Assembly (NCBI GenBank): GCA_026395965.1
Contig: JAPLXS010000007.1
Location: 1-49,653, forward strand
Reading direction: 5' to 3'
Source: Candidatus Nomurabacteria bacterium
GTDB taxonomy: Bacteria; Patescibacteriota; Minisyncoccia; Phycocordibacterales; UBA9973
DNA length: 49,653 nt
In this document: piece after piece, positions 1-45,835 of the stretch
How positions within the stretch are numbered: the stretch's first letter is position 1
Layout: each line of letters begins with the position of its first letter
The notes under the pieces: model-generated
The model's database searches: none
Told to the model about the DNA's origin: nothing
Seen by the model: the letters and a program-made list of their open reading frames with translations, nothing else
Translations under genes and position numbers: made by a program

Positions 1-272
1 GTCGTGCAAGAGAAACTTTCTCAGGCAACGAATTTGGTTTAACATCCTTTGCTCTTGGCTGTATGGCATTGGTTCACCCTGAACGCTATGTCCGCTCCGA
101 AGAACTTGATACCGATTGTGCAGGTGACGAATTTGCTCCTGATGCTGATGGCGTGTTCTCGAAGGCTCCTTTCTTCTACTTCCACGATGACAAGCTTTGG
201 TTCGGCGCGTGCGGTGTGTCCGATGCCTGCGGTGGCTATGGTTCGGCTTCGGCGTTCGTTCCGCAGAATTGA
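1..272 (+). CDS. 3' end of an unidentified protein-coding gene that runs off the left edge
   Basis: Frame 3 is open from the window edge to TGA at 270-272 (...FYFHDDKLWFGACGVSDACGGYGSASAFVPQN*). A hairpin terminator follows. The segment is visibly more G+C-rich than everything downstream. No family recognised. Confidence 0.45.
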   Translation, partial: RARETFSGNEFGLTSFALGCMALVHPERYVRSEELDTDCAGDEFAPDADGVFSKAPFFYFHDDKLWFGACGVSDACGGYGSASAFVPQN

Positions 273-798: not shown

Positions 799-3700
799 AT
801 GGAAGAAAAAGATCAAAAAACAAATAGTGCATTGCGAGAAGAGGCAGTTTTAAAATTTTGGAATGAAAACAAAATATTTAAAAAGAGTTTAGAAAAGAAA
901 TCTCCACTTGGCGATTATGTTTTCTATGAGGGTCCTCCAACTGCAAATGGTAAACCAGGGATTCATCACTTGGAAGCTCGCGCTTTCAAAGATGCTATTC
1001 CTCGTTATAAAACAATGAGAGGGTATCATGTAGGAAGAAAAGGTGGGTGGGACACTCACGGTCTTCCTGTAGAACTTCAAGTTGAAAAAAAGTTGGGATT
1101 ATCTTCCAAGAAAGCCATTGAAGAATACGGAGTTGCTCAATTTAACAAAGAATGCAAAGAAAGTGTTTGGGAATACGTAGATCTATGGGAAAAATTTACA
1201 GAAAGAATCGGTTTTTGGGTAGACCAAGAAAACCCTTATGTGACATATCACAATGATTATATTGAGTCAGTCTGGAATGTTATAAAAGAATCCAAAAAAC
1301 AAGATTTACTTTATAAAGATTACAAAATCGTTCCTTGGTGTCCTAGATGTGGAACAGGTCTTTCTTCTCACGAGCTTGCACAAGGGTACCAGGATGTAAA
1401 AGATTTATCAGTATATGCAAAGTTTAAAATAAAACAGCTTCAAAATATTCCTATTTCTTCACGCTTTACCCCAGAGGGGCCATACACGACTCAGAAATCG
1501 GAAGATTTATCATCTGTTTACATATTAGCTTGGACTACAACTCCATGGACTCTACCCGGGAATGTTGCACTTGCTGTCGGTGAAAATATCGATTATGTAA
1601 AAATTAAAATTGCTAAAAATTCTTCATCAGATTCAGAGTTTTATATATTAGCAAAAGCCCGACTATCTATCATCACAGAAGAATATGAAATAGTAGAAGA
1701 AATGAAAGGCAAAGATTTGGTTGGTTTAGAATACGAACCATTGTATCCATATCTTGAAAATATAATTTCAGAAGTTGAAAAACCTAAACTAGAAAAAGCC
1801 TATAAAATATATAATGCGGACTTTGTAACAACAGAAGATGGTACTGGAGTGGTACACACAGCAGTTATGTATGGACAGGATGACTTTGTATTAGGTAATA
1901 AACTGGGTCTTCCAAAACACCATATAGTAGGACTAGATGGTAAATTTCTCGAGGGCACAGGATTCCTCGAAGGAAGATTTGTGAGAGACGAAGAAGTCGC
2001 CGTAGATATAATAAAAGATTTAGCTCATAGAGGATTTTTATTTAAGAAAGAAAAATACGAGCACTCATACCCACATTGCTGGCGTTGTAAAACAGCACTT
2101 ATCTACTATGCTCGAGATTCTTGGTATATAAGAATGTCTTCTTTAAAAGATAAACTTATTGAAGAAAATAAAAATATAAATTGGGAGCCAGCTCATGTGA
2201 AAGATGGTCGTTTTGGCGAGTGGATAAAAGATATAAAAGATTGGGCAATTTCTCGTGAAAGATATTGGGGAACACCTATGCCAGTCTGGTCTTGTGATTT
2301 ATGTAAAGAAATAGAAGTATTGGGAAGTATAGAAGACATAAAATCAAAAACTAAAAAGTCAGGAAATAAATACATCGTCATGAGACATGGCGAGACTGAA
2401 TGTAATTTGAGAGGCGAAGTAAGTAGTACTGTAAACAATGACGATAATTTAACAAAACTTGGAATAGAACAAGTTATAAAATCTGCAAATGAATTAAAAA
2501 ACCAAAAGATTGATTTGATTATTTCTTCTCCATTTGTGAGAACAAGAGAGACTGCGGAACTGTTGGCAGATAAAATTGGCTTCAACAAAGAAAGTATAAT
2601 CTTTGATGAAAGACTACATGAAATGTCACTTCCAATGTATGAAGGTAAAAAGTGGGATGAATATCACAATGACTATCCAAAGACAGTAGAAAACTTTTCT
2701 AAGGCGCCAGAAGGCAATGAGTCTTATGAAGATGTCAGACGCAGATCTATGAGTTTTTTATATGAAATTGAAAAAACATATTCTGGAAAAAATATATTAA
2801 TCATTACTCATGGAAGCCCTGTTTGGCAGATGTTTTCAGAAGTAAGTGGTTTAAGCACAGAAGAATCTCTAGGTATAATAGTAAATAATAAATTATTTAA
2901 TTATATAAAAAACGGAGAGTTTGTAGAGCTACCATTTGTACCACTTCCTCATGATGAAGATTTCAAGATTGATCTACATAAACCATATATAGATGAAATA
3001 AATCTTGTGTGTGGATGCGGAGGTGTTCTTTCTAGAACAAAAGAAGTTATGGATGTGTGGCTTGATTCAGGGGCTATGCCTTTTGCTCAAAGTCATTATC
3101 CATTTGAAAATAAAGAAATACAATACCCAGCAGATTTTATCAGTGAAGCTGTAGATCAAACAAGAGGATGGTTTTATACACTTCATGCAGTGGGTGTAAT
3201 TATGGGAAGAGGTAATGCATATAAAAATGTGATATGTCTTGGCTTGCTTCTTGATGCAAAAGGAAAGAAAATGTCAAAATCTATAGGAAATATAGTAGAC
3301 CCATGGTTAATGATGGATAAATATGGAGTAGATACACTCAGACTTTGGATGTATTCTGTAAATCAACCAGGAGAATCAAAAAACTTTGATGAAAAAATAA
3401 TTGCAGAATTGCACAATAAAGTATTCAATCTACTTTACAATGTGATAGCATTTTATGAGCTTTATAGAGATAAAGAAGTAGAAAGTACAAATGAGAAAGT
3501 AGAAAGTACAAATATATTGGATAAATGGATTTTAGCTAGACTAGATGAATTGGTTGTTTTGTGTACAGAAAAATTAGATGACTACAAGCTTCTTGAACCT
3601 GTTCGCGGGATTCGTGAGTTTATAGACGACCTTTCAACTTGGTATTTACGCCGTTCACGTGACAGAATAAAAGAAGGAGATATAGAAGCAAAGACAACTA

Positions 3701-4335
3701 TATATTATGTGTTTAAAACATTAGCAAAATTGATGGCTCCATTTGCTCCATTTTCATCAGAAGATATTTGGCAGAAATTAAAAAATGATAAAGACGAAGA
3801 AAGTGTGCATTTGGCAGGTTGGCCAAGTATTCAATTAGGAATTAATAATGAAGAATTAATAATTGAAGGTATGCAAAAAGCGAGAGAAATTGTAACTCTA
3901 GGATTACAAGCAAGACAAAAAGCTGGTATTCCAGTTAGACAACCACTAGGAGAATTACGAATTACGAATTACGAATTACGAAAAGAATATAATGAAATTA
4001 TTAAAGATGAGTTGAATGTAAAAGAAATTACTTTAGAAAAAGGAGAAGAGCAGAATGTTTCAATAGATACTCATATTACTGAAGATCTAAAAAAGGAAGG
4101 CCAGTACCGTGAATTACTTCGTGCAATACAAGATATTCGCAAAAAGAATGGTTTAAATCCTAGCGATGTTATAGTTCTTAATATCGAAACAAATAATGAT
4201 GGACAATCATTGATAAACAAATTCAAATCAGAATTAATTAAGTCTGTTAGTGCAAAAGAAATACAAATAAAAGAAAACGATGGTGTTGAAATAAAGATTG
4301 ATGAATTTGTATTTAGGGTTGTTATTGAAAAATAA
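799..4335 (+). CDS. ileS: Isoleucyl-tRNA synthetase carrying an internal histidine-phosphatase-like insertion (1178 aa)
   Basis: Class I aaRS motifs are present: PPTANGKPGIHH (HIGH region) and KKMSKS. The ORF is collinear with IleRS over the CP1 editing and anticodon-binding regions. An extra ~200 aa at residues ~520-723 carries RHGE and THG motifs. Confidence 0.95.
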   Translation: MEEKDQKTNSALREEAVLKFWNENKIFKKSLEKKSPLGDYVFYEGPPTANGKPGIHHLEARAFKDAIPRYKTMRGYHVGRKGGWDTHGLPVELQVEKKLGLSSKKAIEEYGVAQFNKECKESVWEYVDLWEKFTERIGFWVDQENPYVTYHNDYIESVWNVIKESKKQDLLYKDYKIVPWCPRCGTGLSSHELAQGYQDVKDLSVYAKFKIKQLQNIPISSRFTPEGPYTTQKSEDLSSVYILAWTTTPWTLPGNVALAVGENIDYVKIKIAKNSSSDSEFYILAKARLSIITEEYEIVEEMKGKDLVGLEYEPLYPYLENIISEVEKPKLEKAYKIYNADFVTTEDGTGVVHTAVMYGQDDFVLGNKLGLPKHHIVGLDGKFLEGTGFLEGRFVRDEEVAVDIIKDLAHRGFLFKKEKYEHSYPHCWRCKTALIYYARDSWYIRMSSLKDKLIEENKNINWEPAHVKDGRFGEWIKDIKDWAISRERYWGTPMPVWSCDLCKEIEVLGSIEDIKSKTKKSGNKYIVMRHGETECNLRGEVSSTVNNDDNLTKLGIEQVIKSANELKNQKIDLIISSPFVRTRETAELLADKIGFNKESIIFDERLHEMSLPMYEGKKWDEYHNDYPKTVENFSKAPEGNESYEDVRRRSMSFLYEIEKTYSGKNILIITHGSPVWQMFSEVSGLSTEESLGIIVNNKLFNYIKNGEFVELPFVPLPHDEDFKIDLHKPYIDEINLVCGCGGVLSRTKEVMDVWLDSGAMPFAQSHYPFENKEIQYPADFISEAVDQTRGWFYTLHAVGVIMGRGNAYKNVICLGLLLDAKGKKMSKSIGNIVDPWLMMDKYGVDTLRLWMYSVNQPGESKNFDEKIIAELHNKVFNLLYNVIAFYELYRDKEVESTNEKVESTNILDKWILARLDELVVLCTEKLDDYKLLEPVRGIREFIDDLSTWYLRRSRDRIKEGDIEAKTTIYYVFKTLAKLMAPFAPFSSEDIWQKLKNDKDEESVHLAGWPSIQLGINNEELIIEGMQKAREIVTLGLQARQKAGIPVRQPLGELRITNYELRKEYNEIIKDELNVKEITLEKGEEQNVSIDTHITEDLKKEGQYRELLRAIQDIRKKNGLNPSDVIVLNIETNNDGQSLINKFKSELIKSVSAKEIQIKENDGVEIKIDEFVFRVVIEK

Positions 4336-27131: not shown

Positions 27132-27216
27132 GCCCAGGTGGCGGAATTGGTATACGCGCTAGTCTTAGGAACTAGTGGAGCAATCCTTGGAGGTTCAAGT
27201 CCTCTCCTGGGCACCA
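27132..27216 (+). tRNA. tRNA-Leu (anticodon UAG), class II, CCA encoded
   Basis: Acceptor GCCCAGG/CCTGGGC, anticodon arm CTAGT-cTTAGga-ACTAG, a long variable arm, T-arm GGAGG-TTCAAGT-CCTCT, and discriminator A plus CCA. Confidence 0.9.
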
Positions 27217-27260
27217 TAATAAAAAAACACTATTTAAAATAGTGTTTTTTTATTATGGTG
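27212..27260 (+). terminator. 24-bp perfect palindrome that includes the tRNA-Leu 3' end
   Basis: CACCATAATAAAAAAACACTATTT (27212-27235) pairs with AAATAGTGTTTTTTTATTATGGTG (27237-27260). Confidence 0.6.
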
Positions 27261-27423
27261 CAGAGAGCAATCCGTTGGTACGGCTTGCTCAAGAGGACTC
27301 AAAAAGACTGAGTATATATTTTTTAAATTACTATTTCGAAAACATACGAAGCCTATACCGAACCTACGAATGAGTACATTCGCCTACTAGGTAAGATTCA
27401 AGACTCCTCTCCTCTGTGCACCA
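27261..27423. repeat. tRNA-3'-end-derived repeat (family A copy), ending in a degenerate direct copy of the tRNA-Leu 3' end
   Basis: Hairpin GAGCAATCC...GGCTTGCTC lies at 27265-27290. The core GAACCTACGAATGAGTACATTCGCCTACTAGGTAAGATTCAAG (27360-27402) is the reverse complement of the 39090-39135 units. TTCAAGACTCCTCTCCTCTGTGCACCA (27397-27423) resembles the tRNA-Leu T-loop-to-CCA segment. Confidence 0.7.
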
Positions 27424-39065: not shown

Positions 39066-39215
39066 GGGTAGGACCGCGAGTACGCTTTTTGATTCTTACC
39101 CAGTAGGCGAATGTACTCATTCGCAGGTTCAGTACACCTATTTGGTAGGACCGCGAGTACGCTTTTTGAATCTTGCCCAGTAGGCGAATGTGCTCATTCG
39201 CAGATTCTGTACACC
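39066..39215 (+). repeat. Family A repeat, two tandem ~78-nt units
   Basis: Unit 1 is 39066-39138 and unit 2 is 39144-39215. Each reads GGTAGGACCGCGAGTACGCTTTTTGAWTCTTRCCCAGTAGGCGAATGTRCTCATTCGCAGRTTCWGTACACC. The core matches the reverse complement of 27360-27402. Confidence 0.8.
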
Positions 39216-39249
39216 TTTTCCGTTCGTGAGTACACTCACACGGAAAAGG
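39214..39249. other. Long nested hairpin
   Basis: CCTTTTCCG ... CGGAAAAGG encloses GTGAGT-AC-ACTCAC. Confidence 0.6.
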
Positions 39250-39289
39250 TTTTCAAATCCTACACGCAAGCCAAGCAGTTGGCTTGCTC

Positions 39290-39343
39290 CGACGCACAAA
39301 TGAAAAAACCTTCTTGAAAGAAGGTTTTTTCATTTGTGCGTCG
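39290..39343 (-). terminator. 25-bp perfect palindrome that includes the tRNA-Tyr 3' end
   Basis: CGACGCACAAATGAAAAAACCTTCT (39290-39314) pairs with AGAAGGTTTTTTCATTTGTGCGTCG (39319-39343). Confidence 0.6.
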
Positions 39344-39419
39344 GGTAGGATTTGAACCTACGTAGCCCGAAGGCGACAGATTTACAGTCTGTTGTAATTG
39401 ACCGCTCTACCACCGACGC
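39337..39419 (-). tRNA. tRNA-Tyr (anticodon GUA), class II, CCA not encoded
   Basis: On the minus strand: GCGTCGG...ACAGA-cTGTAaa-TCTGT-long variable arm-GTAGG-TTCAAAT-CCTAC-CCGACGC-A. Confidence 0.88.
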
Positions 39420-40596: not shown

Positions 40597-42057
40597 TTAA
40601 TTATTACCAAATGAAAGAAATTTTGAAAGTAGGCTGTTTGATTTCATGTGGGCATGTATACGTTTTCGAGCAAGGCTTGTTTTTGCATAATCTAACCATT
40701 TTGCAGAGGGTTTAGAATTTTTGTTTGTATGAATTTCTACGATATCATTGTTTTTTAGTTTTGTACTAAGAGCAGAATTTTTTCCATTTATTTTGGATCC
40801 TTGAGCATGATCTCCTACATCTGTATGGATTGCATATGCAAAATCAATAACAGAAGAATCTTCTGGTAAGTCTATGATATCTCCTTTTGGTGTAAATACA
40901 AAAACTCTATTATTAAAGAAATCCATTTTTATTGATTTTAAAAATTTTTCTGGATCTTCTTTATTTTGATTTAATTCATGAAGTTGTTGCACCCATTCAA
41001 GATGTCTTGGTACACTTTTTTCATTTTTTTCTTTATATAAGAAGTGAGCAGCAATACCATTTTCAGCTTTTTCATGCATTTCATATGTACGAATTTGTAT
41101 TTCTGCTATTCCACCTGTTCCTGTAAATATGGTTGTATGCAAACTCTGGTATCCGTTTGCTTTTGGTGTGGCTATATAGTCTTTTATACGGTTTGGTACA
41201 GGTGTCCATTCTCCATGAATAAGTCCAAGTATATGATAACAATCAACAACAGATTCAACCATGACACGGAGGGCTATAATGTCGTATATCTTGGTTATAT
41301 CCATATCATTTTTCTGGAGTTTTTTCCAAAGAGAATATAGATGCTTTTGTCTGTAGTCTATCGTTGCATTTTTTATATTTGATTCTTTAACCTTTTCTTC
41401 AATTTTGTTTTTAATTTCAATTAAATATTTTATTCGAGCATCTTTTTTATCAGAAAGTAATTTTTTAACTTCTTCATATTCTTTTGGATATGCAAATTTA
41501 AATGCACCATCTTCAAGTTTGCCCTTGAGTCTACCCATAGAAAGACGGTTGGCTAGGGGAACATATATCTCAAGAGTTTCAAGTGCTATACGTTTTTGTT
41601 TATCTGGCCGAACATTTTCTAGAGTTTCTATATTGTGTAATCTATCTGCAAGTTTAATAACAAGAACACGTAAATCTTTTGCAACTGAAATAAAAAACTT
41701 TCTTAAATTTTCTACATTTCTTTCTATGCCTTTATATCTAACCATACCAAGCTTTGTAACTCCTTCTACTAAGTTTGCTATTTCTTCACCAAATTCTTTT
41801 TTTAATTCATCTTCTGTTATATTTGTGTCTTCTATAACATCATGAAGTAACCCAGCTGCTATAACAGTAGGACTCATTCCAAGGTCTGCTAGGTTTTGAG
41901 CAGTGCTTACAACGTGAATAAAGTATGGGTCACCATTTTTGCGAAGTTGTCCTTCGTGAGCTTTTTTTGCAAAATTATATGCCTTTTCTATAAGTGCTTT
42001 ATCTTTTTCTGTAATATTGGGTATAAAAGACAGTATTTTATCTATTGTTGGTATCAT
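40597..42057 (-). CDS. rsh: RelA/SpoT homolog, (p)ppGpp hydrolase/synthetase with a TGS domain and no ACT domain
   Basis: HD hydrolase motif (LLHDVIEDT), synthetase region (YQSLHTTI...EIQIRT) and a TGS domain (VFTPKGDIIDLPEDSSVIDFAYAIH). Confidence 0.85.
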   Translation of the reverse strand: MIPTIDKILSFIPNITEKDKALIEKAYNFAKKAHEGQLRKNGDPYFIHVVSTAQNLADLGMSPTVIAAGLLHDVIEDTNITEDELKKEFGEEIANLVEGVTKLGMVRYKGIERNVENLRKFFISVAKDLRVLVIKLADRLHNIETLENVRPDKQKRIALETLEIYVPLANRLSMGRLKGKLEDGAFKFAYPKEYEEVKKLLSDKKDARIKYLIEIKNKIEEKVKESNIKNATIDYRQKHLYSLWKKLQKNDMDITKIYDIIALRVMVESVVDCYHILGLIHGEWTPVPNRIKDYIATPKANGYQSLHTTIFTGTGGIAEIQIRTYEMHEKAENGIAAHFLYKEKNEKSVPRHLEWVQQLHELNQNKEDPEKFLKSIKMDFFNNRVFVFTPKGDIIDLPEDSSVIDFAYAIHTDVGDHAQGSKINGKNSALSTKLKNNDIVEIHTNKNSKPSAKWLDYAKTSLARKRIHAHMKSNSLLSKFLSFGNN

Positions 42058-42081: not shown

Positions 42082-42183
42082 TTATTTTGAAAGTTTTTTG
42101 TTGTTCTTTATATTTTCTCCAAGTTTATGTGGATTATGATTCTTGCACATTTTGTTACTGCATCTCTCTGGTATAGTTTTTGG
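42082..42183 (-). pseudogene. Displaced duplicate of the topA 3' end (last ~28 codons, preceded by an in-frame stop)
   Basis: 42097-42180 matches topA 42338-42421 over 84 nt with 4 differences, all synonymous third-codon positions in the topA frame. TAA lies immediately upstream in that frame. Confidence 0.75.
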
Positions 42184-42302
42184 TTACAAGTTTTTTCTCG
42201 TCGCCACTCGAAAAACTCATAACCTTGACTCGTGGTTTTGCGCGCTCGCAAGTCGCGTTTCAATGGACACTACGCGACACGATTCTGCGGAATCGCCGTC
42301 TC

Positions 42303-42339
42303 ACAAAAACTAAAACATTTAGCGAAGGCTAAATGTTTT
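42303..42339 (-). terminator. Rho-independent terminator of topA
   Basis: On the minus strand: AAAACATTTAGC-CTTC-GCTAAATGTTTT followed by AGTTTTT. It overlaps the topA stop codon region. Confidence 0.7.
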
Positions 42340-44560
42340 TATTATTCTTTATGTTTTCACCAAGTTTATGTGGATTATGATTCTTGCACATTTTGTTACT
42401 GCATCTCTCTGGTATAGTTTTTGTGCCTTCCATCATTAGTGACTGACACATATCACAAATATTTCCAGTAGGTTTTGCTTTGATAGCATTTTTACAAGCA
42501 GGATAATCGCTACATGAATAGAATATTCCAAATCTTCCTTTACGCTCCATCATTTTTCCTTTTTGACAAGTAGGGCAAGTTATATCTGTCATTTTTCTTT
42601 TAACTTCTTCCTCATCTTGTTTTATAAATTTACATTTAGGATAACGAGAACAAGATATAAATGTACCTGTTCCATCGCGTCTTACTCTTATAACGAGTTT
42701 TCCTCCGCCAGATTTACCTTTTTTCTCTCCACAAGTTGGGCACATTTCACCAGTTTCTTTTGGTCCTTCAAGTTCAATTCCATCAATAGTTTTTGCACCA
42801 TCACAATCTGGATAGTTTGCACATGAATAAAACTTACCTCCGCGTGAAAGTTTTACAATCATATTTCCTCCACATTTTGGACAGAGCATATCACTAGGAG
42901 CTTCTCCCATATTTGTAGCTTTAGCAAGTTTATCTTTTTCTTTTACATCTTTCTGAAATGGAATATAGAAATCACTCAATGTTTTAGTATATTCTCTTTT
43001 ACCATTTGAAATATCATCTAGCTTATCTTCCATTTCTGCTGTGAAAGTATCACTTATATATTCTCCAAAATTATTTTCAAGAAAAGATGACACTACATCT
43101 CCGGTATCAGTAGGGAATAAAGTTTTACCTTCTTTTCTAACATAACCTCTATCTTCGATAGTTTTCATTATGGAAGCATAAGTAGAAGGGCGTCCTATGT
43201 CGCGAGATTCTAGTTCTTTGACAAGACCAGCTTCAGTATAGCGATTTGGTGGCTCAGTAGCTTTTTCAGTACTGTTTAATTCTAATAGTTTAAGTTCTTC
43301 TCCTATTGTAACTTCGGGAAGTTCTACATCTTCACCCCGAGCTCCTGTCTCACAAGCAAGCCACCCAGGAAACAATACTCGTGATCCATTTGCTGTAAAA
43401 TCAGGAATAGAATCACCTTTAATGTTTGCAGTAATTTTTGTTTTTAGTAATTTTGCATCCGACATTTGTGATGATACAACTCTTTCCCAAATTAATTTGT
43501 AGAGTTTATTTTGTTCCTCATTTGCGCCAGCATTTATTTGTTCTACATGTGTAGGACGTATAGCTTCGTGAGCTTCTTGTACGTTTTTAGATTTTGCTTT
43601 ATATATATGAGATTCTACATATTCCTTTCCATATTTTTTTTCAATAAGGGCAAGGATTTGATTCTGAGCAACTAAGCTTAGATTTGTACTATCAGTACGC
43701 ATATATGTAATAAAACCCTGCTCATAGAGCTTCTGGGCTATTTGCATGGTACGTGAAGGAGAAAATCCTAGTCTTGTACTAGCTGTTTGCTGGAGAGTAG
43801 AAGTTGTAAATGGAGCACGGGGTTGTCTCTTTTGTTCACTAGTTTTCAAATCTTTTACAAACCATTTTTCTTTTGTACCTAATTCTAAAATTTTATTTAC
43901 TTGTTTTTCATCTCTAGGTTCATCTACACAAGATAAAATAAGTTTATCTTTTTTATTTGTTTCCCAAAGTCCTTCAAGGGTCCAATATTGTTCAGGAATA
44001 AAAGCACGGATTTCTCTTTCTCTTTCCATTATTATACGAAGTGCAGGGGACTGAACACGTCCAGCAGAAAGTCCATATCGAACTTTCTTCCAAATTATTC
44101 CTGATAGATCATACCCGACGAGTCTATCGAGCACACGACGTGCTTCTTGAGCTTTTACTAGATCTAGATCTATATCACGAGGATTTTTGAGAGCTTCCTT
44201 TACTGCTTCTTTTGTAATTTCATTGAAAGTAACTCTTTTAATAGGAGCTTTGATTTTCTTGTCTTCATCTAGAAGTTCCTTTAAATGCCAAGAAATAGCT
44301 TCTCCTTCACGGTCCGGGTCGGTTGCGAGCATTATTTCTGTAGCTTTTTGAGAAAGAGATTTTAATTCGGATACTACTTTTTCTTTGCCTTTTGATATTT
44401 CGTATCGAGGTACAAATCCAGCGGGTATATCTAGCGCATCCTTGTTGGATTTTGGTAAATCTCTAATATGCCCAACAGAAGCGCGTACAGTATATGCGCC
44501 ATCTAAATATTTTTCTATTGTCTTTGCCTTTGATGGGGATTCAACTATAAGTAATTTCAT
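42329..44560 (-). CDS. topA: DNA topoisomerase I with four C-terminal zinc ribbons
   Basis: Toprim domain (LLIVESPSKAKTI), the active-site Tyr region (GFITYMRTDS) and C-terminal CxxC...CxxC repeats. Confidence 0.93.
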   Translation of the reverse strand: MKLLIVESPSKAKTIEKYLDGAYTVRASVGHIRDLPKSNKDALDIPAGFVPRYEISKGKEKVVSELKSLSQKATEIMLATDPDREGEAISWHLKELLDEDKKIKAPIKRVTFNEITKEAVKEALKNPRDIDLDLVKAQEARRVLDRLVGYDLSGIIWKKVRYGLSAGRVQSPALRIIMEREREIRAFIPEQYWTLEGLWETNKKDKLILSCVDEPRDEKQVNKILELGTKEKWFVKDLKTSEQKRQPRAPFTTSTLQQTASTRLGFSPSRTMQIAQKLYEQGFITYMRTDSTNLSLVAQNQILALIEKKYGKEYVESHIYKAKSKNVQEAHEAIRPTHVEQINAGANEEQNKLYKLIWERVVSSQMSDAKLLKTKITANIKGDSIPDFTANGSRVLFPGWLACETGARGEDVELPEVTIGEELKLLELNSTEKATEPPNRYTEAGLVKELESRDIGRPSTYASIMKTIEDRGYVRKEGKTLFPTDTGDVVSSFLENNFGEYISDTFTAEMEDKLDDISNGKREYTKTLSDFYIPFQKDVKEKDKLAKATNMGEAPSDMLCPKCGGNMIVKLSRGGKFYSCANYPDCDGAKTIDGIELEGPKETGEMCPTCGEKKGKSGGGKLVIRVRRDGTGTFISCSRYPKCKFIKQDEEEVKRKMTDITCPTCQKGKMMERKGRFGIFYSCSDYPACKNAIKAKPTGNICDMCQSLMMEGTKTIPERCSNKMCKNHNPHKLGENIKNNKNI

Positions 44561-45740: not shown

Positions 45741-45835
45741 GAATAGTCTTATCAGAGGGACTTGGGAGGCTGTCGAGCCGAGCACGAGGAATTTTTTAGT
45801 AGAAAAATATCCGTGCCCTTTGAGAAGAGCTATTC
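45741..45835 (+). repeat. Family B structured interspersed repeat, copy B2
   Basis: 95 nt running GAATAGTCTTATCAGAGGGAC...GTGCCCTTTGAGAAGAGCTATTC, ending 56 nt before the serS ATG. Confidence 0.85.

Follow-up and report, generated by a model that had tools for sequence, protein, structure and literature searches.

Integrase islands and their cis-mobilisable derivatives are integrative elements found at the 3′ ends of tRNA, tmRNA, and protein genes. They bring a replacement 3′ end for the gene they enter and leave the displaced native end behind as a direct repeat (attL/attR). Empty sites occur in relatives, and tRNA genes are favoured targets, with the T-loop as the classical integrase sublocation. 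The unit described here lies at the end of topA in a 49,653-nt contig of a Candidatus Nomurabacteria bacterium (JAPLXS010000007.1; the whole stretch is referred to as the window), and its family shares the replacement end, the direct repeat, the empty sites, and the use of tRNA genes. Unlike integrase islands, the units measure only 159–241 nt, are protein-less, and have no linked integrase; they instead combine a conserved fold, strand-specific and covarying, with a guide that is complementary to their target.

Integron attC sites and CTX-type phages use a strand-specific fold closed by pairing between the interior of a unit and the first bases of the next, as is seen here. Integron cassettes also resemble these units in forming tandem arrays at one site and encoding no recombinase of their own. 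However, the units lack the RYYYAAC/GTTRRRY boxes of attC, no IntI or dif-like site is seen, and the closing helix varies with the target (for example, AGUUUUUG/CAAAAACU). As payload they carry a piece of the target gene instead of the free-standing gene of a cassette.

Group I introns carry an internal guide that pairs with the end of the upstream exon and the start of the insert. Its alternative partner is the beginning of the downstream exon, so that both junctions are brought into register. The likeness to the present unit is an analogy of layout only. The GUG guide of the Azoarcus intron reads CAU, and the guide here ends in GUG and reads CAC. Group I cores span at least ~200 nt, whereas the core here is ~90 nt and does not match the Rfam group I model; the group I catalytic core (P3–P9 and the G-binding site) is unmatched in Rfam even at E values up to 10. 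The unit also differs from group I introns in having no U-G pair at the 5′ junction, where the pair is C-G in all 50 topA-linked elements, and no terminal G, since its 3′ end is ACC. Splicing is dispensable as well, because the unit brings a duplicate of the downstream exon that ends in a stop of its own.

In fungal mitochondria, the C-terminus of host genes such as atp6 of Allomyces can be replaced by mobile endonuclease elements, and host gene fragments are exchanged through intron mobility (PMC7315562). These elements resemble the present unit in supplying a foreign in-frame C-terminal piece and leaving the resident piece downstream as a fragment, but they encode a homing endonuclease and have neither a guide nor a conserved small fold. 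IS110-family bridge (seek) RNAs and guide-RNA-directed transposons are similar in that the target is set by base pairing with a structured non-coding segment. Bridge RNAs contain two internal loops (target and donor) and act with their own DEDD recombinase, whereas the unit here folds differently, has only one guide, and lacks such a linked gene. In contrast to the constant terminal inverted repeats of MITEs, the inverted repeat formed by guide and target changes with the target, and the “duplication” is ~90 nt long and derived from different alleles, not a short target-site duplication of fixed length.

The topA-rsh locus

The segment at 42182–42422 is probably a copy from an apparently new family of mobile elements in Patescibacteria (Paceibacteria/Nomurabacteria) that are miniature, protein-less, site-specific, and guide-directed; neither the motif nor any such element is described in the literature searched. 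Each unit consists of a payload, a 9–10-nt guide, a ~90-nt core (P2 and P3), and a fixed 3′ end, GU(G/A)ACC, in that order. The payload in the window comprises the last 30 codons of topA with their stop, followed by a terminator-like hairpin (Table 1).

A repeat search of the window returns a 93-nt direct repeat (42090–42182 and 42331–42423, 94% identical, spacing 241 nt), which confirms the original prediction that the last ~28 codons of topA are present twice, 241 nt apart. A repeat of this length at the topA end is far beyond chance. The upstream in-frame copy (copy A) and the downstream copy (copy B) both encode KTIPERCSNKMCKNHNPHKLGENIKNNK in the topA frame on the minus strand. Their common coding part differs at four positions (copy A/copy B: GGT/GGA at 42359/42118, AAC/AAT at 42353/42112, and AAT/AAC at 42344/42103 and 42341/42100), and 4/4 are synonymous third-position changes, as had been predicted. 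The divergent tails after the repeat (NI* in copy A, KLSK* in copy B) were likewise correctly read. An in-frame TAA lies at 42186–42184, two codons ahead of copy B. This stop is created by the end of P3, GU(A/G)ACC, and the element 3′ end makes a TAA or TGA in every occupied locus.

The repeat starts with the C at 42423/42182, the insertion junction is at 42423|42422, and the last 94 nt of topA (42422–42329) come from the insert. Between the copies are the topA stop, the terminator-like hairpin, and a segment that reaches 54–57% GC in a window of 32% GC. The segment had been regarded as GC-rich foreign DNA; its composition is as described, but it is a conserved ~90-nt folded module rather than anonymous sequence. 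A tRNA/tmRNA scan does not find the insert tRNA-like, and the TopA of the window has no exact-protein match on record. The minimum-free-energy fold predicted for the entire unit includes helix P1, formed by the target and the guide. A promoter-like match for rsh lies directly 3′ of copy B, and the topA-rsh gene order is the same in relatives.

Table 1. Positions of the unit, its parts, and the flanking genes in the window
Feature	Positions	Strand	Basis
topA coding sequence as now read	42329–44560	-	ORF list; Pfam Toprim, Topoisom_bac, Zn_ribbon_Top1
Inserted unit, 241 nt: replacement gene end, hairpin, guide, folded core	42182–42422	-	Absent from empty-site relatives
Target site T, CAC/AAAAACTAT, junction after CAC	42414–42425	-	Inverted repeat; 11/12 bases complementary to guide
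Payload (copy A): replacement topA 3′ end, tail NI, stop TAG 42331–42329	42329–42422	-	
Payload terminator-like hairpin, 12 pairs then U-rich run, enclosed by P1	42312–42339	-	Predicted folds
Guide (internal guide sequence) UUAGUUUUUGUG	42302–42313	-	Last three bases GUG pair with host CAC left of junction
Core domain P2: GAC/GUC helix, GGA/GA internal loop, long hairpin	42227–42300	-	Alignments, covariation, covariance-model alignment
Core domain P3 (GGUUAU.../...GUAACC), ending exactly at 3′ junction	42182–42224	-	Covariation, covariance-model alignment
Copy B: displaced native topA 3′ end (KTIPERC...NNKKLSK), stop TAA 42084–42082	42082–42181	-	No longer joined to topA
rsh (RelA/SpoT homologue), native downstream neighbour	40597–42057	-	Pfam HD_4, RelA_SpoT, TGS

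Diversity-generating retroelements, which are common in this bacterial radiation, also place a non-coding copy of a gene 3′ end just downstream of that gene; copy B would then be the template repeat, and the topA end the variable one. This reading was rejected and is given practically no credence: the differences are all synonymous and just 1/4 involves an adenine in copy B, no reverse transcriptase is found nearby, and topA encodes a housekeeping enzyme rather than a ligand-binding target.

Empty sites and the native gene end

The topA end is occupied in 13 of ~80 species and empty in the rest, and 12 of the occupied species besides that of the window carry units of the same make-up (159–209 nt). 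The original prediction proposed a search for empty sites, and in ~67/80 species-level relatives a single topA end does run straight into rsh. Empty sites also exist within the clade of the window, in L206/P0006 and P0002, where TopA is 93–94% identical and 42 nt separate topA from rsh. Copy B, its tail, and the rsh promoter region align with the native topA end and intergenic region of L206, in agreement with the earlier view of the downstream copy as the displaced original end. In L063 and L079, the nearest empty-site neighbour is resembled by the downstream copy and not by the in-frame copy (0.81 for copy B versus 0.60 for copy A in L063); judged by sequence, the in-frame copy is foreign in both. 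These comparisons support the reading that the upstream in-frame copy came with the insert and that the downstream copy is the native end.

In the 42 copy pairs compared, third positions account for most differences, which begin right at the junction. Because of this pattern, and because most copies B are frame-intact, both copies must derive from functional alleles, as originally proposed. Copy B is decayed in L093, L121, L183, L191, and L202 and in the third copy of L070; the native end persists as an untranslated copy that is decaying in some lineages. A long target-site duplication was suggested by the identical 64-nt prefix of the two copies in the window, and was rejected as not general, since divergence in most pairs sets in with the first codon past the junction. 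The prefix in this clade more likely reflects gene conversion or a closely related donor.

The payload tail and hairpin are common to L002, L004, and L005, while the silent sites of the hosts differ. Between L002 and L004, the elements are 2.2% different and the third codon positions of topA 34% different. Element copies are therefore far more alike than the silent sites of the host gene, a contrast in divergence that indicates recent horizontal spread. The mostly synonymous differences among orthologous copies B in this clade had also suggested that copy B is translated or under selection, as in an intron or ribosomal bypass. Recent independent insertions fit better, given 2% divergence among the elements against 34% at host silent sites, and translation of or selection on copy B was rejected.

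The folded core

The core is a conserved ~90-nt fold of two helical domains with 30 base pairs, 23 of which show compensatory changes. Paired cells make up 96.2% of the core alignment versus 77.7% in shuffles, double-change cells number 305 versus 79, and slid controls reach at most 48%. Conserved G-U pairs are present in 51/56 and 41/56 sequences, which makes the fold specific to the sense strand of the gene. The P2 and P3 loops show no variation with the target. Immediately upstream of the core, most copies have a terminator-like hairpin with a U-run.

The core matches no described RNA family in Rfam 15 at the gathering threshold; searches of the window at that threshold, and of the insert and a clean copy at E values up to 10, return only tRNAs and noise. 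The self-cleaving ribozymes (hammerhead, twister, pistol, hatchet, HDV-like, hairpin) give no Rfam match. Judged by eye, GUGAG and GGGG, the junction strands, are unlike the CUGANGA and GAA of the hammerhead, and hammerhead, hairpin, and HDV-like folds, the kink-turn, and a tRNA-like minihelix were rejected as not fitting in visual comparison.

Family size and targets

At least 120 metagenome stretches match the core pattern. Of 102 distinct copies classified, 56 are linked to the end of topA, 35 directly follow tRNA genes, and 9 adjoin the ends of other genes, proportions that are biased because the metagenome sample was drawn with a pattern from topA-linked copies, in counts that are not phylogenetically independent. 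The copies are compact and protein-less with precise ends, and they come from NCBI, JGI, and ENA assemblies. The same core is found behind many different tRNA genes and other genes, whatever adjoins it downstream, and units form tandem arrays in L079, L070, L122, and L168. Longer autonomous relatives, with a target match more than 320 nt upstream of the guide, were not found, and the core pattern is unmatched in viral contigs.

The 102 compact copies bear out one half of an earlier alternative, a tiny non-autonomous element, and not the other, a decayed remnant. A remnant of a larger prophage or island, a simple tandem duplication, or an assembly artefact is scarcely tenable for the unit. It is indeed too small to encode anything, and slippage can make repeats, but more than 100 compact copies with precise ends share a conserved, covarying core. 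Tandem duplication should also repeat the hairpin and core after copy B, and was rejected as neither is seen there. A Logan contig with the same rsh gene ends inside the repeat, which may point to an artefact but is as expected for a true repeat. The duplication structure recurs in the independent assemblies L002–L005 and, more broadly, in independent assemblies from all three archives; it is therefore not an assembly artefact, a possibility that the original prediction had named against itself.

A further reading holds that the core is a resident regulatory or processing RNA (a 3′ UTR stabiliser, terminator module, rsh leader, or topA antisense regulator) that is inherited vertically, with the duplication as a by-product of local rearrangement. 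The well-supported, conserved fold, its position between topA and rsh, and the resemblance of the hairpin at 42312–42339 to a bidirectional terminator are all compatible with this. It is nonetheless highly improbable in view of the patchy distribution, with precise empty sites even inside one clade, the tandem arrays, the same core behind many different tRNA and other genes, the low divergence of elements relative to host silent sites, and the foreign in-frame copy of L063 and L079.

Guide and target

The guide precedes the core and pairs with the target CAC/N7 across the insertion junction, contacting the unit’s first bases and three host bases. Targets have the form CAC/N7–9, with the unit inserted exactly 3′ of CAC. 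The beginning of the displaced native end, after the core, is another possible partner of the guide. Complementarity of at least 10/12 to an upstream site occurs in 54/82 elements versus 5–7/82 in controls.

Covariation in P1 was tested in 50 topA-linked elements in which T was set by the TopA reading frame alone. The third base of the Thr codon and the guide form A-U (17), C-G (14), G-C (8), and U-A (4) pairs, and that of the Lys codon forms A-U (30), G-C (16), and G-U (3) pairs; the junction pair is C-G in 50/50 elements. Mismatches between guide and target are of the G-U type 21 times and of the A-C type four times. Changes in the guide go together with changes at synonymous topA positions and at the host base left of the junction. 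At this host-side base, C is found in 10/12 occupied species versus 32/67 empty ones; in the other two, L070 (GUA/UAC) and L079 (GUC/GAC), the element carries the compensating change. Seven of the ~10 guide-target pairs are formed with the unit’s own 5′ end and only three, CAC/GUG, with host bases; part of the guide covariation is thus internal to the element and need not reflect target choice.

These pairings bear on the proposal that the unit is a classical miniature non-autonomous integrative element, moved by a trans-acting integrase on double-stranded attP/attB, with the core as an arm or accessory binding region and the guide complementarity incidental or structural. As in tRNA-gene islands, the gene is followed by a replacement end, the element, and the displaced end; some tRNA-linked copies have their junction in the T-loop, and empty sites exist. 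The proposal is still improbable: covariation in the core is RNA-like and strand-specific, with G-U pairs for which a protein binding site in double-stranded DNA has no need, guide and target covary, host-side bases included, and no inverted core-type sites are evident around a 6–8-bp overlap. The unit contains no ORF; no recombinase domain, transposase, or reverse transcriptase is encoded by the 34 ORFs of the window or beside the copies inspected, and no integrase is found in the window or beside any of the 102 copies. Of the integration event originally predicted, the layout stands, with its empty sites and displaced native end, but the integrase named as its agent was not found in these places and may be wrong. 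A gene elsewhere in the genome might supply such an activity in trans.

Proposed mechanism

In the favoured reading, that of a guide-directed mobile element, the payload replaces the 3′ end of the entered gene and the guide would select the target. The folded module would be the active part in insertion and perhaps in precise excision. Pairing of the guide with the host CAC and with the start of the native end would line up both junctions, by analogy with P1/P10 of group I introns. Insertion is expected to be harmless because the payload keeps topA intact whether or not the unit is ever removed.

The module most likely acts at the RNA level, a reading given about an even chance; it would then be a small ribozyme or would partner, as RNA, with an enzyme encoded elsewhere. 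The main alternative, plausible but short of even, is that the module acts as folded single-stranded DNA that is cut and joined by a host enzyme, as in integron attC or the CTX phage.

It is unlikely, though conceivable, that the ~90-nt core and guide form a new class of catalytic RNA and that the unit is a minimal mobile intron. Such a unit would leave the transcript through a P1/P10-type alignment of both junctions and would spread into CAC/N7 sites by reverse splicing or target-primed copying. Its in-frame mimic of the downstream exon would allow spliced and unspliced messages alike to give a working protein or tRNA. The hairpin and U-run upstream of the core would limit co-transcription with the host gene, which argues against a purely RNA-level life cycle.

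If the reading as a mobile family holds, ultra-small, gene-poor bacteria host abundant gene-less mobile DNA that finds its target by base pairing and avoids harm by supplying the split gene with a spare end. This would be a new principle of mobile elements, intermediate among guide-RNA transposons, self-splicing introns, and integrative islands. Several oddities of Patescibacteria genomes would then be accounted for as well: unusual duplications of gene ends, fragments of tRNA genes, contigs that break at these repeats, and mis-called topA C-termini. The putative targeting module is compact (~100 nt) and apparently programmable. A catalytic module would represent a new small ribozyme class, and one that recruits a host enzyme would point to an unrecognised nucleic-acid-guided recombination activity in bacteria.

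The copy in the window

BLAST and nhmmer find no second element copy in the window, and the covariance model with filters off gives one weak hit at 45752–45830. P2 of the window copy contains a 35-nt expansion (42262–42296) that removed the otherwise invariant GGAG. Owing to this expansion and the missing GGAG, the copy at the topA end of the window may be inactive.

Origin of the topA duplication

The 3′ end of topA in the window is duplicated as a 93-nt direct repeat with 94% identity and a spacing of 241 nt, and the upstream copy (copy A) forms the end of the gene. Both copies encode KTIPERCSNKMCKNHNPHKLGENIKNNK in the topA frame. At each of the four sites where the shared coding part differs, the change is synonymous and in the third codon position, as the original prediction stated. 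The tails are unlike (NI* vs KLSK*), and a TAA stands in frame two codons ahead of the downstream copy (copy B). The stretch between the copies contains the topA stop, a terminator-like hairpin, and a segment with GC up to 54–57%, compared with a window mean of 32%. Logan contig SRR20698642_121403 (L001:1), an independent assembly with the same RelA/SpoT homologue gene (rsh), stops within the identical stretch of the repeat at a point 91 nt upstream of rsh, which is the break expected for a true repeat.

Features of the window
Feature	Position	Strand	Description
topA ORF	42329–44560	−	743 codons; Toprim, Topoisom_bac, and three Zn_ribbon_Top1 domains
rsh	40597–42057		gene downstream of topA
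Repeat copy A	42331–42423		
Repeat copy B	42090–42182		
Terminator-like hairpin	42312–42339		between the copies
P2 expansion	42262–42296	−	35 nt
tRNA-Leu gene	27132–27216		
tRNA-Leu-linked element	27214–27422	+	downstream of tRNA-Leu
tRNA-Tyr gene	39336–39419		
tRNA-Tyr-linked element	39150–39335	−	downstream of tRNA-Tyr
Weak element-model match	45752–45830	+	between dprA and serS
Isoleucyl-tRNA synthetase-like ORF	799–4335	+	1178 aa; His_Phos_1 (histidine phosphatase) at residues 526–697
ORF end opening the window	1–271	+	GC up to 64% vs 32% for the genome

Many close TopA relatives occur within Paceibacteria/Nomurabacteria. The same duplication, with a conserved insert, is present in the four closest genomes; two more relatives, as near to the window as the occupied genomes (TopA 93–94% identical), are empty, with a topA-rsh spacing of 42 nt. 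A species-level scan with one genome per species gave 80 loci: 13 species, the window counted, have a second TIPERC-encoding copy 159–241 nt downstream, and in the rest topA is followed by a short spacer and then directly by rsh. Copy B of the window aligns, together with its tail and the promoter region of rsh, with the native arrangement of the empty relatives; copy B is therefore the displaced original end, and 42422 to 42182 is the insertion. The topA duplication was correctly read as an insertion scar, and the proposed layout of gene, replacement end, element, and displaced end is right, in agreement with the single-copy sites found among the species relatives and the two close relatives.

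Among 42 topA copy pairs, the differences are chiefly third-position and usually start right at the junction. Most downstream copies retain an intact frame and natural stop, and a minority are frameshifted or truncated. Wherever a close empty neighbor exists, the native-like copy is the downstream one: relative to its empty neighbor L064 (gene body identity 0.86), locus L063 scores 0.81 in copy B and 0.60 in copy A, and locus L079 behaves likewise. The window's two copies are identical over their first 64 nt; as this is not the rule among the copy pairs, we take it to reflect a closely related donor or gene conversion. The elements of occupied loci L002 and L004 show 3 differences in 137 positions, whereas their topA third codon positions differ by 34%. 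Taken with the patchy distribution and the foreign copy A, this low divergence indicates that a unit carrying its own gene end has recently spread horizontally.

A conserved folded core

All occupied loci share a core with the consensus GUGAGRCGGAG - hairpin - CGAGYCGGGGUCGCG - hairpin - AUUAUYUGUGACC, whose 3′ end coincides exactly with the start of the downstream copy. The GC-rich segment, first noted as foreign, is indeed part of the insertion, and it is more than that description allowed, namely this conserved folded core. No Rfam family matched it. An exact-pattern scan recovered it in at least 120 stretches of metagenome contigs, and the viral contigs scanned gave no match.

For 56 diverse copies, aligned with one another, RNAalifold predicts a two-domain fold of 30 pairs, with compensatory changes in 23. 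Domain P2 comprises a GAC/GUC helix, a GGA/GA internal loop, and a long hairpin; P3 pairs GGUCGCG... with ...UGUGACC. Standard pairs form in 96.2% of cells (77.7% in shuffles) and both sides change in 305 cells (79 in shuffles), while sliding the 3′ partner by 1–3 columns leaves 35–48% paired. Two G-U pairs are conserved, in 51/56 and 41/56 sequences, and would be A-C mismatches on the opposite strand, which identifies the modeled fold as specific to the sense strand of the host gene.

In the window's element, P2 is remodeled and the invariant GGAG is absent, so this copy may no longer be active. Its P2 expansion, not present in L002–L005, adds two hairpins, one with GTTTCAATGGAC, which resembles a CRISPR repeat start; the expansion could be a nested insertion. 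Some short-form cores (metagenome loci L122, L168, L171, and L172) have an extra insertion of ~35 nt, GTCTTCTGACTCTGAGAGTCATCAGACTCGATGAG, between GAGGCGG and GTCGCG, which would make the modeled junction four-way and may reflect nesting of another small element.

A target-complementary guide

The 12 nt ending in the core GUG form a guide complementary to an upstream site. The guide-target distance is ~100–110 nt in topA copies, where the in-frame copy has its 5′ boundary at the target, and ~36–42 nt in tRNA-linked copies. Complementarity reaches at least 10/12 in 54 of 82 elements, compared with 5–7 of 82 for reversed or shuffled targets. Mismatches fall at the three distal positions, giving a guide-target helix (P1) of 9–10 bp, and include G-U 21 times and A-C 4 times. 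When the target is defined solely by the TopA reading frame (Gly-Thr-Lys-Thr), guide bases follow the synonymous positions: pairs at the Thr codon's third base are A-U 17, C-G 14, G-C 8, and U-A 4 times, and those at the third base of the Lys codon are A-U 30, G-C 16, and G-U 3 times.

The first three P1 pairs, CAC with GUG, involve the host bases left of the junction. In 10 of 12 occupied species the host-side base is C, vs 32 of 67 empty ones, and both exceptions are compensated in the otherwise invariant GUG (UAC with GUA in L070; GAC with GUC in L079). P1 is present in the whole-unit minimum-free-energy folds of the window and L010. A second possible partner for the guide is the start of the displaced end; pairing there would place the two junctions side by side. 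Confidence in guide-directed targeting, as suggested by these complementarities, is moderate.

Other targets and a second core family

The 102 distinct copies classified, which include metagenome copies among the matches listed, lie at the topA end (56), immediately downstream of same-strand tRNA genes (35), at other gene ends or in arrays (9), and at contig edges (2). tRNA-linked targets are either the last tRNA bases plus trailer (CAC|AAAAGCG) or the T-arm, in which case the tRNA 3′ part is duplicated, as the topA end is. L079 has two elements and three topA ends; in L070, two elements are accompanied by the stump of a third. Family-1 cores also sit at the 3′ ends of other protein genes (L200:3100-3410, L120:1600-1760, L107:4900-5100), where the guides match the final codons and the stop (e.g., CACACAGTGTAA, 12/12, in L120), which extends the targets beyond topA and tRNA genes.

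The tRNA-Leu and tRNA-Tyr genes of the window each precede an element of the same architecture with a different core. Behind tRNA-Leu, a long hairpin from the tRNA end (CACCATAATAAA...TTTATTATGGTG) is followed by a T-arm-complementary segment (GAGGACTC); next come a core of ~110 nt ending ...GAATGAGTACATTCGCCTACTAGGTAAGATTC and a degenerate second copy of the 3′ end of tRNA-Leu (AAGACTCCTCTCCTCTGTGCA). Behind tRNA-Tyr, a perfect hairpin (CACAAATGAAAAAACCTTCTT...GAAGGTTTTTTCATTTGTG) precedes sequences complementary to the tRNA-Tyr acceptor and T-arm, and the core ends ...GCGAATGAGCACATTCGCCTACTGGGCAAGATTC. Both belong to a second core family, also seen in L099, L150, and L160. The weak match near serS (16.6 bits, E about 0.002) resembles a degenerate short-form core, GGAGGCUGUCGAGCC...CACGAGGAAUUUUUUAGUAGAAAAAUAUCCGUG, with no tRNA gene or duplicated gene end evident.

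Autonomy and mechanism

The unit contains no ORF, and the 34 window ORFs include no recombinase, transposase, or reverse transcriptase domains. A search for far-upstream target matches found no longer relative with a coding payload, and a literature search found neither the core motif nor any description of such elements. Of the options first offered, a tiny non-autonomous element is the correct one: the element belongs to a large family of compact, structured units whose guide is complementary to the target, and the insertion seems to represent a small mobile element of a new kind.

The element's anatomy and mobility can be stated with high confidence, any particular chemistry with low confidence. 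Three features favor an RNA-level activity of the folded core, or a role as RNA partner of an enzyme that would act in trans: the fold is strand-specific, the conserved junction strands are rich in purines, and the geometry resembles P1/P10 (by analogy with the group I intron helices). Folded single-stranded DNA as the substrate of a host enzyme fits about as well with a terminator-like hairpin immediately before the core, a payload that is self-sufficient, and arrays that resemble cassettes. A classical integrase might also act in trans, but it would account for neither the fold nor the guide.

Additional observations in the window

In the isoleucyl-tRNA synthetase-like ORF, the His_Phos_1 domain is inserted within the class I synthetase core. 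The GC-rich ORF end that opens the window may belong to a recently acquired gene.
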